Of a stretch of DNA of 64,000 bases, positions 965-49,853 are shown piece by piece. The DNA comes from a virus: the IMG/VR virus record IMGVR_UViG_3300036770_006954, positions 96,001 to 160,000 of that record; one strand, given 5' to 3'. Every line of letters starts with the position of its first letter. Position 1 is the stretch's first letter. The position numbers and the translations under genes are program-made. The notes below the pieces were generated by a model. It saw nothing but the letters and a program-made list of their open reading frames with translations. It did not search any database and had not been told where the DNA came from.

Positions 965-2020
965 ATGGACCAACCTCAAATAGACAAAGTCAAACTTTCA
1001 ATTAGTAATCTTAGAGAAAAAAAATCAAAACTATATTTTTTCATCCACGATACTAAAGGTAACGCCAAAGCCTCAATCAAATACATTTATGATTTGGCAC
1101 TCACACTAAAACGAAGTGGATTTAATTCGATTATCCTACATGAAAAATCTGATTACACAGGAGTTGCATCATGGTTAGGAGAAGAGTATATGACTGAAAT
1201 TCCACATCAAGTTATCGATGGTCAGAATGTAGAAATTGCACCTGAAGACTTCTTGATTGTTCCCGAAATTTTTGGGTTTATGATGGACCAAGTTAAAAAC
1301 TTACCTTGTGGTAAAATTGTCTTAACACAGTCTTACGCATATATGTTGGAGACTCTTCAACCTGGTCAGACTTGGAATCAATATGGTTTCTTTAAAACCA
1401 TTACTACTTCAGAGGCACAAAAGGATTATATCAGCAAGGTGATGAGAGGTCAATCATACGATATTATCGAACCTTTCATTTCTGACGACTTTAAAAAAAG
1501 AAATTTACCACCACTTCCTATCATTGGTGTTCATTCCAGAGAACAAGAAGACACAATTAACCTTATCAAAACATTTTACCTAAGATTTCCTCAATACAGA
1601 TGGTTTACCTTCCGTGATTTAAGAGGTCTTTCTCAAGAAGAATTTGCCAACGCAATTTCAGAGTGTTTTGTATCGGTTTGGATTGACAGACAAAGTGGTT
1701 ACGGTACTTTCCCATTAGAGTCAATGAAAGTTGGTGTTCCTGTAATTGGAATTACACCTAATTTGGTCCCTGAATGGATGAATGAAAACAACGGAATTTG
1801 GATTAAAGATGAAATTCTTCTTCCAGACATTATCGCAGATTGGACTCAAAATTGGTTAGAGGATAATATCTCAGAAGAAATGTACTCAAACATTCAAGAA
1901 ACTGTTAACAAACTTCCAACAAAAGAACAATTTGAAAATAAAACCATAGAATTATTCACAGAATATCTTGAATTAAGAGCACAATCTATGGAAGAACAAA
2001 TCTCAAAATTTAGCGAATAA
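965..2020 (+). CDS. GT-B (GT4-like) glycosyltransferase
   Basis: SGYGTFPLESMKVGVPVIG resembles EGFGLPPLEAMACGxPVI. Confidence 0.7.
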   Translation: MDQPQIDKVKLSISNLREKKSKLYFFIHDTKGNAKASIKYIYDLALTLKRSGFNSIILHEKSDYTGVASWLGEEYMTEIPHQVIDGQNVEIAPEDFLIVPEIFGFMMDQVKNLPCGKIVLTQSYAYMLETLQPGQTWNQYGFFKTITTSEAQKDYISKVMRGQSYDIIEPFISDDFKKRNLPPLPIIGVHSREQEDTINLIKTFYLRFPQYRWFTFRDLRGLSQEEFANAISECFVSVWIDRQSGYGTFPLESMKVGVPVIGITPNLVPEWMNENNGIWIKDEILLPDIIADWTQNWLEDNISEEMYSNIQETVNKLPTKEQFENKTIELFTEYLELRAQSMEEQISKFSE

Positions 2021-3992: not shown

Positions 3993-6149
3993 ATGCCAAT
4001 ATTTAATAATCAATCTATAGACATCTCAAGTGGGTTCGAAAGTATCTCATCAAGAATTTCTGCTCTACAAGCATACAATGAAGCACGACAAGGTCAGATT
4101 GAAAGTGATAAAACTCGTGGTGACAGTTTAGCCCGTTCACTAGAAATATTAGCGGGACAAAAGTCATCTGTTGAAGCAAATCAGTCAAGAAACAAAAGAA
4201 ATCAAGAATCAAGTTTTGATAAACTAATTTCATTAATCAATCAAAGCACTTCGGGTTCGACGTTTTCAAGCACCAATAGTCTCATTAGACAAGAACTTTT
4301 GGGATTAGTCTTTAAAATGAAGGATGAAATAAGAAAGATTATTTCAGAAGAAGCTTTCAGAGTTTTGAACTGTGCTCAACAACAAACCTATCAGGGCTAC
4401 CCAACATCACAACTCCAAAATATATCGTCATTTTCACTTCTCCCTCAACAGGATGGAATTTATGTTAAGGTTAGTGAGGTTGATTTCAACAGCTCTTTAA
4501 AAATAAAACCACAAACTCAAATAGGAAAGTTATACTATGAAACCACAGGTATAACTTCTCTATCGGTGTACAACAACTATGCGGGGAGACAACCATTCCC
4601 AATGAATTTTGAGTTAAATGAAAGAATTCAACAACAAAATTCAACCTTCCGCGATGAGTTTTCAGTACCATATAATGGAAGAAGTAGACAAGGAATTTTT
4701 GATATTGAGTACACCACACAAAACGGGGTGGGAGCATCTGGCGATTATTTCCGTGTATTTCTCTTAGATAGGGAACCTAGTCCACCACCAACTACGGGTG
4801 GCACTATAAGTCAATTGATATCATCAGCAAATACTGTTGTTGATGCTTTGGGGGATTACTATCAATCAATAGAAATCTATAACTCAAAAGTTTTTTTGGG
4901 TAACCTTTTGAATTTAGTATCAGGTACTCTTTCACAGTCATTATCAATTCAACAAATTGAAAATCAAAACAGATTTGTTACAATTCTTAATCGAATTATT
5001 GGGAGATGTGAACCTGGTCAAAGTGAAATAGATGTGTCGGGTGTTGCCAAACTTTCTGAATTAGATATTGATGATGATGAATTTTTTACATTTACAGAAG
5101 TCGAGTTAAATGACATCAACACCGCCTCAGTCAATCAAAAACAAGGAGTAATTGAATTCATAGATTGTGATACAGTTAAACTTCCTGTAAATAATAGTGT
5201 TTTATTACAAGAAGCACAAAATCTTGCAGATAATATAGACAATCTTTCAGTTGAACAACAAGTTGCCGAAATTGATAGAATATTGGACTCAATCACACAG
5301 GAATTCAATCAAACGGGATTCGGGGGGGTATCATTTGATGTCACAAACCCATTCAATCAAAGTTTGTTCAAAAAAATAATATTAGCACTTTTATCCTCAC
5401 TTTTTACCCCGAAAGTGTTGTTACCAATTTTTATATTCAAAGAATATCTTAATAACCAAGTTGTTGGTTTTGCTAATACCCTTATCACCTCAGCGAATAC
5501 AATAATCACTTCAGCAAATACCCTAATTAATTCGGCAAATACAATCAATAATTTAATTGCATCACAAGTTAATAATGGTGTAGATTTTGTCCGACAATAC
5601 AAAAAATTTGTTTTCAATGTTGTCGGTAGGATTATGAATAGATTTTTGGAGCTTCTTTTCAATATGTTAAAGAAAAATCTTTTAAGACTTCTTAGAGAAA
5701 TTTTGAGAGATATTGCTCGTACAAGTAAAGATGCAAGACTTAAAGCAATTAATGCGATATTGGACTATGCCCAACCTTTGATACAAGGGTTTCTCAATTA
5801 CAGAGAATGTAAGTCTTTGATTCAACAGATTCAAAGGCTTCTCTCACTTCTTAGAGGAACACCACGAACTCCACCATCAGGTATTGGATTGTCCCTTTTG
5901 GCGTTATCAGATTTTTTACCAGGTATAAGTCCTGAAAGAGGTGTCTTAAACACCATCGAATACATGGAGGCTTATGGTTTGAAAGTGGGACCATTACCTG
6001 ATGGTTCACCAAACAGAATAATAAGATTTACAACGGCAATACAAAAGGGGGGATATGACGAATTTATTCAAAATGGTAAAGTAAGTGGGGGTGCGTTTGT
6101 ACCACCACTAACGGGAGGGATAGTTAAAATATTTGCTAAAGGATTTTGA
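3993..6149 (+). CDS. large putative virion/baseplate-region protein
   Basis: 718 aa ORF in late operon upstream of the gp5-like gene; short ANT(L/I)I(T/N)S heptad repeat. Confidence 0.5.
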   Translation: MPIFNNQSIDISSGFESISSRISALQAYNEARQGQIESDKTRGDSLARSLEILAGQKSSVEANQSRNKRNQESSFDKLISLINQSTSGSTFSSTNSLIRQELLGLVFKMKDEIRKIISEEAFRVLNCAQQQTYQGYPTSQLQNISSFSLLPQQDGIYVKVSEVDFNSSLKIKPQTQIGKLYYETTGITSLSVYNNYAGRQPFPMNFELNERIQQQNSTFRDEFSVPYNGRSRQGIFDIEYTTQNGVGASGDYFRVFLLDREPSPPPTTGGTISQLISSANTVVDALGDYYQSIEIYNSKVFLGNLLNLVSGTLSQSLSIQQIENQNRFVTILNRIIGRCEPGQSEIDVSGVAKLSELDIDDDEFFTFTEVELNDINTASVNQKQGVIEFIDCDTVKLPVNNSVLLQEAQNLADNIDNLSVEQQVAEIDRILDSITQEFNQTGFGGVSFDVTNPFNQSLFKKIILALLSSLFTPKVLLPIFIFKEYLNNQVVGFANTLITSANTIITSANTLINSANTINNLIASQVNNGVDFVRQYKKFVFNVVGRIMNRFLELLFNMLKKNLLRLLREILRDIARTSKDARLKAINAILDYAQPLIQGFLNYRECKSLIQQIQRLLSLLRGTPRTPPSGIGLSLLALSDFLPGISPERGVLNTIEYMEAYGLKVGPLPDGSPNRIIRFTTAIQKGGYDEFIQNGKVSGGAFVPPLTGGIVKIFAKGF

Positions 6150-33860: not shown

Positions 33861-33901
33861 ATCAATATAAATACTTATATTTGTAGTGTTCTTTGAAATA
33901 T

Positions 33902-34309
33902 GGGGGTGACCGGTATTGATTGGCAGAGTTAGTCATACGGGGCATGCGGTGAGATGTTTCCTATCACCTAAATCTATGGATGCAAAAATCAAACGGCGAA
34001 ACTTTCGCAAAACTCGAGGCTGTGGGTCTTCTCGCAGCTGAGGAAGTTACTGTAGCCTAAGGCTATATTAACAATGGGTCGATGGACATATAACCTTGAA
34101 ACAGAAGTCCCTACGGTGTGGTTTCTACCTTAAAAGGAATGGAGGTCATGTTTGGTGTTCTACCGATTTGAGTGAACACCCCACAGTTGTTGGTGACGAT
34201 GGTAAAATAGAAACCAAATAGTTCGGAGGGTGTGAAAAACCCTGACCTAAGCATGTAGTCCTTTATGGGTAAACTGAGCAAGACGCGGGTTCGATTCCCG
34301 CCACCTCCA
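33902..34309 (+). ncRNA. ssrA: tmRNA; predicted tag (A)GETFAKLEAVGLLAAEEVTVA
   Basis: GGGGGTG/CACCTCC-A acceptor with G3:U, T-arm GCGGGTTCGATTCCCGC, tag ORF 33995-34060. Confidence 0.93.
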
Positions 34310-34328
34310 CTAATTTTGTTGGTTCGAA

Positions 34329-36619: not shown

Positions 36620-36695
36620 GTCGAAGTAGCTCAGTGGTAGAGCAGCTTTCTTAATTGAAGGTGTGACGCGATAGGTTCGATTCCTGCCTTCGGCT
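36620..36695 (+). tRNA. atypical tRNA-like RNA (8-nt loop CTTAATTG)
   Basis: GTCGAAG/CTTCGGC acceptor, normal D arm, weak T stem. Confidence 0.6.
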
Positions 36696-36725
36696 CTTAA
36701 TTACTCTAAAGACTATTTATAAGAC

Positions 36726-44276: not shown

Positions 44277-44361
44277 TAGTCAGGACAGGATTCGAACCTG
44301 TAACTTTCGTAGATACCTTTCTGGCTCTCCCTACTGCGTATTCCTTTTTCGCCACCTGACT
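44277..44361 (-). ncRNA. tRNA-like RNA, AGTCA family, no anticodon loop
   Basis: AGTCAGG/CCTGACT, D arm, ACAGG-TTCGAAT-CCTGT. Confidence 0.7.
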
Positions 44362-44642: not shown

Positions 44643-44732
44643 TAGTCAGGACAGGACTCGAACCTGTACGAATGTTCCTTTCCCCGCAGACATAAAGTAC
44701 AACGGTGCGCCTACCAATTACGCCACCTGACT
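44643..44732 (-). ncRNA. tRNA-like RNA, AGTCA family
   Basis: AGTCAGG/CCTGACT, D arm, ACAGG-TTCGAGT-CCTGT, oversized anticodon-position loop. Confidence 0.7.
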
Positions 44733-44741
44733 ATAATAAAA

Positions 44742-44941
44742 TGGAAACCCCCCCTCTACGCTCACCGTAGTTGTGAATTTTACTGGACATAGTTTACTGT
44801 CCACCTGTTGCGAGTCGACTGCAGAGCAGGGTCCATCACAGAGTACCTTGGGGCATGTACAACTTCTTTATGGTTGCGACCCATTTGAAGCCAAGGTTCC
44901 TTTCAACGGTGCTAATCCGTCTTCTGTAAGGAGTTTTTCCA
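44742..44941 (-). ncRNA. unassigned ~200 nt multi-stem RNA
   Basis: TGGAAA/TTTCCA closing stem plus several internal helices. Confidence 0.6.
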
Positions 44942-44946
44942 TTTTG

Positions 44947-45044
44947 TGGTGTGAGCGGGATTCGAACCACGCGGCACAGTCTTTTTCACGGACTTGCTCT
45001 ACCATGGGAGTATCATATGAGTACTCCACCTGAGCTATCACACC
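44947..45044 (-). tRNA. tRNA-Phe(GAA)-like with hairpin inserted in D-loop
   Basis: GGTGTGA/TCACACC acceptor; GGAGTA...TACTCC inside the D loop. Confidence 0.7.
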
Positions 45045-49628: not shown

Positions 49629-49660
49629 ATGGCTACCAATATGTCAAAGAACTTAGTAAG

Positions 49661-49696
49661 AAAACAAAAGACCCGAACCTTTTTGGGGTTCGGGCC
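49661..49696 (-). terminator. intrinsic terminator/attenuator upstream of tRNA operon
   Basis: GGCCCGAACC-loop-GGTTCGGGTC followed by TTTTGTTTT. Confidence 0.8.
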
Positions 49697-49724
49697 TCTG
49701 TATAGTTTCTTACAAGTACTACAT

Positions 49725-49817
49725 TCAAACTCCCAAACCCGCACAACTACGCTGGTACCATTTTACACAAATGATATCAAACATATTGTTAACGAGATTA
49801 TGAAATAGAGTTTTCAT
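49725..49817 (-). CDS. putative leader peptide MKTLFHNLVNNMFDIICVKWYQRSCAGLGV
   Basis: 30-codon ORF between a TATCTTTG promoter (49836-49843) and the terminator; A-rich upstream context. Confidence 0.65.
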   Translation of the reverse strand: MKTLFHNLVNNMFDIICVKWYQRSCAGLGV

Positions 49818-49853
49818 GTTTTTATAATTATACCACAAAGATACAAAAGATTT

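Follow-up and report, generated by a model that had tools for sequence, protein, structure and literature searches.

A large freshwater phage carries, in front of its tRNA genes, a short leader ORF and a predicted switchable transcription stop. The codons of the leader are those read by the tRNAs that follow. The best reading is a ribosome-mediated (leader-peptide) transcription attenuator matched to its own tRNA array, inferred from sequence comparison alone, and the phage probably makes more of its own tRNAs when decoding slows down. The window analysed is a stretch of 64,000 nucleotides, bases 96001-160000 of the 171.6-kb IMG/VR record IMGVR_UViG_3300036770_006954. CheckV rates this record 57% complete, so it belongs to a jumbo phage. 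A sequence-only reading had proposed a pan-amino-acid attenuator at this locus, and every element that it listed was confirmed on the minus strand. Its interpretation was partly supported: the attenuator anatomy and the link between leader codons and tRNAs held, whereas the pan-amino-acid sensor was not supported as written.

Organization of the leader and its tRNA genes

The leader promoter has a TTTG -33 element at 49866-49863, which lies 19 nt upstream of the -7 box and is kept in most relatives. The -7 box TATCTTTG (TAnnTTTG, Bacteroidetes sigma-A type) lies at 49843-49836. In Flavobacterium the sigma-A box occupies -12 to -5 (PMC9723704), which puts the predicted start of transcription near 49831. 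The leader ORF runs from the ATG at 49817 to the TGA at 49727-49725 and has 30 codons. The AUG is 14 nt from the predicted transcription start; its context beats 67% of long-ORF starts and ranks in the top 1.5% of all ATGs in the genome. The peptide uses 18 of 20 amino acids, and 16 different ones in codons 11-28. The probability of 18 types in 30 residues is about 0.014-0.02, whereas the presence of F, I, Q, R and W alone is not significant (P 0.09).

The intrinsic terminator hairpin is at 49699-49667 (regions 3 and 4), with 13 pairs, 7 of them G-C. It is followed by a T tract at 49666-49655, and is the strongest of 11 terminator-like sites in 12 kb. The 3' part of the T tract (49664-49656) pairs with 49713-49706 as an outer stem; the diverged relative L033 (L numbers denote the related loci) has an outer stem of different sequence. 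The anti-terminator strand (region 2), GGGUUUGGG at 49740-49732 in codons 26-29, pairs with CCCGAACCC at 49694-49686 in the 5' arm of the terminator over 9 bp, with 8 Watson-Crick pairs and 1 G-U. Its duplex energy is -17.3 kcal/mol, against -9.0 +/- 2.2 in dinucleotide shuffles (P 0.001).

A boxA-like motif, GTTCTTTGACAT, starts at 49652, within GTTCTTTGACATATTGG (49652-49636) in the 5' leader of the tRNA precursor, and is kept at 96-100% in all relatives. The motif (G/T)(G/T)TCTTTG(A/T) stands 6-27 nt before five stable-RNA units of the window (49636-49652, 33888, 36083, 44040 and 45313). One of these is a phage tmRNA gene at 33888-34312 (+), whose Rfam match (E 2e-16) was cut by the start of the searched interval. 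It is preceded by a TATATTTG box and then the same GTTCTTTGA motif, which ends 6 nt before the 5' end. The relative L002 also has a tmRNA. Other tRNA clusters of the window likewise have a TATATTTG box 10-19 nt before the mature 5' end, but the Phe cluster has none after the terminator. The sequence GTTCTTTG was considered as a sigma-A promoter and rejected, because it lacks the conserved TA and at the tmRNA gene lies downstream of a proper box, although this possibility is not excluded.

The tRNA array Phe(gaa), Ile(gat), Gln(ttg), Arg(acg) and Trp(cca) lies at 49628-49242. The rest of the same-strand island (49241-42865) has 11 more tRNAs (Met, Lys, Val, Met, Leu, Tyr, Asp, Tyr, Asn, His and Cys), whose codons also fill the leader. 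Read-through may extend to these tRNAs, some of which have their own TATATTTG box. The island also contains a match to the Rfam freshwater-1 RNA (RF02979) at 44778-44840 (-), with 66 bits, just under the gathering score of 72 (E 2e-13). Weak Rfam tRNA matches (38-41 bits) were found at 44947-45044, 44277-44361 and 44643-44732 (-); these are long tRNA-like RNAs, and ARAGORN does not call the first two. ARAGORN reads the tRNA-like genes at window 36620-36696 (+), L047 6806-6899 and L049 2944-3023 with anticodons of four or two bases (taat, caag, tg), which may be frameshift-type or disrupted tRNAs. In L049, a related phage, a tRNA with anticodon CTA (amber-reading; labelled Pyl by ARAGORN) lies just upstream of the leader at 5291-5363 (-), which hints at stop-codon suppression or recoding. 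In L048, a tRNA-like sequence with a Cys-type anticodon loop, which ARAGORN does not call, lies between the terminator and the boxA-like motif at 1545-1645 (-).

Structural and evolutionary analysis of the leader

The 177-nt leader folds at -56.7 kcal/mol (z -5.8 against shuffles), with one large hairpin spanning the whole ORF, its base at the start and stop codons, and an extended terminator hairpin. The 5' strand of the large hairpin (region 1, 49813-49792) pairs with region 2 and its flanks. The inner hairpin (49789-49743, codons 10-24) includes the UGG-UAC codons 20-21 at 49760-49755. When the RNA was cut before the 3' arm of the terminator, the best fold changed to the 9-bp helix between regions 2 and 3. 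On the nascent RNA the 2:3 state is about 8 kcal/mol better than the 1:2 state, whereas on the full RNA the 1:2 hairpin plus terminator is about 18 kcal/mol better; both figures hold for the window and for L033. Folding with a ribosome footprint held unpaired showed that an A site at codon 22 or earlier leaves region 2 free, and that from codon 24 to the stop region 2 is masked. This is the geometry of classical attenuators.

Homologues of the upstream methyltransferase led to contigs with the same leader, and a metagenome scan with a conserved 20-mer added more, although columns inside that 20-mer are invariant by construction in those rows. This gave 18 distinct variants of the core family, and motif scans of IMG/VR added four more diverged lineages. 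A scan for the terminator itself found leader families with unrelated peptides: the L052/L053/L070 type, the L058/L056/L073 type, L066, L069 and L062. About 13 leader variants from metagenomes and IMG/VR, some with unrelated peptides, all keep the same layout: an ATG ORF of 25-36 codons ending at or just after the anti-terminator strand, then the terminator, then a tRNA array. Five other loci from the terminator scan (L055, L057, L060, L064 and L068) lack such an ORF or lie in another context. The leader is 90-100% identical in relatives whose neighbouring methyltransferase gene is only 66-77% identical, so it evolves as slowly as the tRNAs.

Some relatives lack the module. L002 has none, and L004-L007, L036 and L037 lack both the leader and the array; in some such relatives the methyltransferase gene is followed directly by the next promoter. 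In the window the module is flanked by two identical 13-mers containing the promoter box (49846-49834 and 49215-49203, the latter in front of the next gene), whereas relatives without the module have a single copy. This is consistent with gain or loss of the module by recombination between promoters. A search of INPHARED phages gave only tRNA matches. Searches of IMG/VR with the methyltransferase protein and with three window-specific patterns found nothing, although records near the window may not have been among those searched. A pattern scan of genome contigs also found nothing, and no second copy was found in the phage's own genome or in the L002 record. No match to the RNA or the peptide was found in Rfam, PHROGs or Pfam.

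Independent folds of the window and L033 share 26 pairs at identical positions, and five of these carry changes on both sides. On an alignment of relatives, 99.1% of cells in the hairpin over the ORF pair, against 35-49% when partners are slid by 1-3 columns. The five double changes, all from one lineage, were not reached in 500 shuffles. This 1:2 hairpin appears in every MFE fold, but by duplex energy alone the 1:2 helix is not better than shuffles (P 0.1-0.5), and at equilibrium the nascent RNA prefers the 2:3 state. One-sided changes in near relatives keep the pairs of the inner hairpin, and the loop codon 18 varies freely. Trp followed by Tyr or Phe sits at codons 20-21 in all seven core lineages, although the helix register differs between clades. 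The terminator has 96% of cells paired across the relatives. The complement to its 5' arm is present in all eight core-family variants (seven lineages), always at ORF nt 75-88, with energies of -15 to -19.5 kcal/mol; P is 0.001-0.004 in the window and <=0.002 in every other core lineage. In L033 a C-to-U change in the arm is matched by a G-to-A change in region 2, which keeps the helix.

Within near relatives nothing shows that the ORF is real. Substitutions fall 11/15/12 over the three codon positions, and the failure to create stops is uninformative (P 0.19). A third-position excess appears only on the branch of L047 and is also uninformative. Across diverged lineages the picture changes. 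The ATG frame stays open for 25-32 codons in all core lineages and for 26-36 codons in the unrelated leader families, whereas the other two frames carry 1-6 stops. In the core lineages the stop lies from inside region 2 to 10 nt past it. In shuffled upstream sequence, an ATG ORF of at least 25 codons ending in that place appears in only 2-9% of trials. The pN/pS is 0.26-0.68 in the ATG frame, against mostly 0.7-1.6 in shifted frames, with one shifted-frame value of 0.28. However, the conserved codons lie in conserved stems, so that codon and structure constraints are confounded within the core family.

Correspondence between leader codons and tRNA arrays

Anticodons were taken from ARAGORN and standard wobble rules were applied. 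Every tRNA of the array directly behind each of 13 leaders has a cognate codon in that leader (86 of 86, not independent). The sensing part of the leaders is enriched for codons read by their own arrays: 20/20 codons in L049 (P 2e-7), 20/22 in L056 (P 2e-6), 16/21 in L050 (P 2e-5), 16/20 in L047 (P 9e-5), 16/20 in L048 (P 8e-4), and 16/24 in L066 (P 4e-3). The choice among synonymous codons follows too. Where Arg(tct), Ile(tat), Leu(taa) and Ser(gct) follow, the leaders use AGA, AUA, UUA and AGU; where Arg(acg) and Ile(gat) follow, as in the window, they use CGU and AUC/AUU. In L062 the codons AAA, AUA AUA, UUA, AGA and AUG stand in the order of the genes Lys, Ile, Leu, Arg and Met. In L069 a run of seven codons encodes only the six amino acids of its six tRNAs. 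Arrays were also exchanged among eight family representatives. The sum of z scores against each leader's own array was 19-23, and none of 14,833 derangements reached it.

In the window, the leader is not enriched against its five adjacent tRNAs alone (6 of 21 cognate codons, P 0.13). It fits the longer arrays of its relatives L047 and L048 better (z 2.4-2.7). The tRNAs that those relatives carry in one array lie further down the same strand in the window, separated by protein-coding genes. When all 16 minus-strand tRNAs from 49628 to 42865 are counted, 20 of 21 codons in positions 2-22 (49814-49754) are cognate (expected share 0.54, P 5e-5). Only 1 of 21 is cognate to the window's other ten tRNAs (expected 0.46, P 5e-5). 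Codons 23-30, where a ribosome would mask the anti-terminator strand and could not signal, show no such bias (3/8 and 5/8). The limits of the island were chosen after seeing the data, so this figure is less secure than the exchange test. The proposed sensor is not pan-amino-acid, because it avoids codons of tRNAs encoded elsewhere. Amino-acid diversity is also not kept in all lineages, ranging from 13 to 19 types, with per-lineage P of 0.02-0.2 in the core family.

Proposed mechanism and relationship to known systems

In the proposed mechanism, transcription starts near 49831 and a ribosome loads on the AUG. If decoding is fast, the ribosome would reach codons 24-31 and cover region 2; the terminator would then form and the transcript would end before tRNA-Phe. 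If the ribosome lags or stalls within codons 2-22, region 2 would be free to pair with the 5' arm of the terminator before the 3' arm is made, and RNA polymerase would read on into the tRNAs. Without a ribosome, the hairpin over the ORF can hold region 2, which would also favour termination; however, at equilibrium the nascent RNA prefers 2:3 even then, so the behaviour without translation is uncertain and depends on folding kinetics. The circuit would be a negative feedback, in which too little of these tRNAs leads to a stall, read-through, and more of these tRNAs. The computation shows the parts, their conservation, the covariation, the alternative pairing, the maintained ORF and the codon-to-anticodon match, whereas it is inferred that the ORF is translated, that stalling controls read-through, and in which direction the response goes. 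Leader-peptide attenuation is reported for Flavobacterium (PMC9723704). Weak RNA evidence comes from contigs of one metatranscriptome run, which overlap from 49741 across the terminator into tRNA-Phe. The 5' half of the leader has no cover and the neighbouring genes have little or none, but a hole in contig cover proves nothing, and DNA carry-over cannot be excluded. There are no tandem runs of one regulatory codon. On balance this reading is held with fairly good, but not high, confidence.

Other explanations are considered unlikely. The unit might be a terminator/anti-terminator switch that does not use the ribosome, in which a protein, a small RNA, a tRNA or a metabolite stabilizes either the hairpin over the ORF or the anti-terminator, and the ORF is incidental. 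All the structural evidence fits this equally well, as do the absent third-position bias in near relatives and the location of conserved codons in stems. However, the ORF is kept in about eight independent lineages, where chance gives 2-9% each, its stop is always at or just past region 2, and a sensor that ignores the reading frame does not explain why leader codons follow the anticodons of the array. No Rfam family, T-box included, matches the leader at E<=1. A chance ORF and chance complement beside an ordinary terminator is very unlikely. Several features of the window are weak when taken singly (P 0.09 and 0.13, above), but conservation, covariation, the shuffle tests and the array-exchange test all speak against it.

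About as unlikely as the ribosome-independent switch is a separate small gene, either a stable small RNA or a micropeptide, with the tRNAs transcribed from a start site after the terminator. L033, L045, L050, the L058 type, L066 and L069 have a perfect TAnnTTTG box between the terminator and the boxA-like motif, and there the array may have its own promoter. The outer stem that pairs with the T tract would protect the 3' end of a released RNA, and attenuator-derived small RNAs and peptides that act in trans are known (PMC7968998). The leader also persists in L029 and L003, where the tRNAs behind it are fused or lost. In several relatives (L003 3945-4005; L012, L023 and L029 at the same place) the first tRNAs are fused into hybrids, the 5' part of Phe joined to the 3' part of Ile or Trp, that ARAGORN does not call; this is either real recombination between similar T arms or a collapse in assembly. 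On the other hand, the window lineage has no TAnnTTTG box between the terminator and tRNA-Phe, a conserved complement to the terminator arm has no role in a plain terminator, the peptide sequence evolves almost freely and has no Pfam or PHROG match, and the codon-to-array match points to a functional link with the tRNAs. A type I toxin mRNA, which would encode a conserved hydrophobic membrane peptide, was also rejected: the peptide is polar and mixed, residue 18 varies among V, Q, M, D and E, and near relatives show no third-position bias.

Why phages carry tRNA genes, and when they use them, is an open question; the current answers are codon-usage compensation, host shut-off and escape from tRNA-cutting defences. 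A leader whose codons mirror the tRNAs behind it would give these phages a built-in gauge of decoding capacity, and the question becomes directly testable with a 190-nt cassette. It would also be the first attenuator known to control tRNA genes, as full-text literature searches found no report of one on tRNA genes or on phage tRNA arrays. The co-variation between leader codons and array content also offers a purely computational way to find which tRNAs a phage treats as limiting. The sequence-only reading had suggested that a stall from any depleted or cleaved tRNA turns on the phage tRNAs, as a possible counter to anticodon nucleases or starvation; such a role, or one against host shut-off, is plausible but remains inference. 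A broader reading is possible but tentative, and less likely than not. The element might be a homeostatic multi-tRNA sensor, with each phage lineage re-writing the leader's codons whenever its array gains or loses genes. In the window it would gate, or once gated, the whole 7-kb stable-RNA island (49628-42865), and any shortage or cleavage of the matching host tRNAs, for instance by anticodon nucleases or host shut-off, would switch on the phage's replacements. This would be the first known feedback control of virus-encoded tRNAs.

Several known systems share features with this element. The T-box riboswitches also sense tRNA status and control read-through of a terminator in genes of the translation apparatus, but they bind the tRNA directly and need no ORF. 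No Stem I, specifier loop or T-box sequence is present here, the Rfam search over 34-54 kb of the window gave no such match, and the anti-terminator is a plain 9-bp helix. The motif GTTCTTTGACAT resembles boxA (GCTCTTTAACAA) of the rRNA operon leaders and sits at the 5' end of stable-RNA units; in L071 a canonical boxA follows the same type of terminator. This resemblance is one of sequence and position, with NusB/NusE binding only inferred by analogy, and the motif lies after the attenuator and is not part of the switch. The ribosome-stalling leader ORFs ahead of antibiotic-resistance genes (erm, mef/msr and ABC-F type attenuators; e.g. PMC4335068) also have a mixed-sequence leader peptide, where any slowing of the ribosome within a defined stretch frees an anti-terminator. 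However, in those systems the stall is caused by a drug, and there is no correspondence between the leader's codons and the downstream genes. In the pheM-pheST attenuator of E. coli, attenuation by a leader ORF also controls a part of the translation apparatus, in a feedback through decoding of cognate codons; its target is a synthetase, it uses a single amino acid, and it is not known in phages. The leader-peptide attenuators of amino-acid operons (trp, his, pheA, leu, and the multivalent thr and ilvGMEDA leaders; the Yanofsky model) share a promoter-proximal short ORF, three mutually exclusive helices (1:2, 2:3, 3:4), with mixed support here for the 1:2 helix, an intrinsic terminator before the regulated genes, and regulatory codons about 15-20 nt ahead of region 2. 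The ilv and thr leaders already sense two or three amino acids. The element described here is encoded by a phage and would regulate tRNA genes rather than biosynthetic enzymes. Its ORF runs through region 2, and in place of tandem runs of one codon it has one or two codons for each of 5 to about 17 different tRNAs, a set that changes with the array behind. The signal would be tRNA supply itself rather than amino-acid supply.
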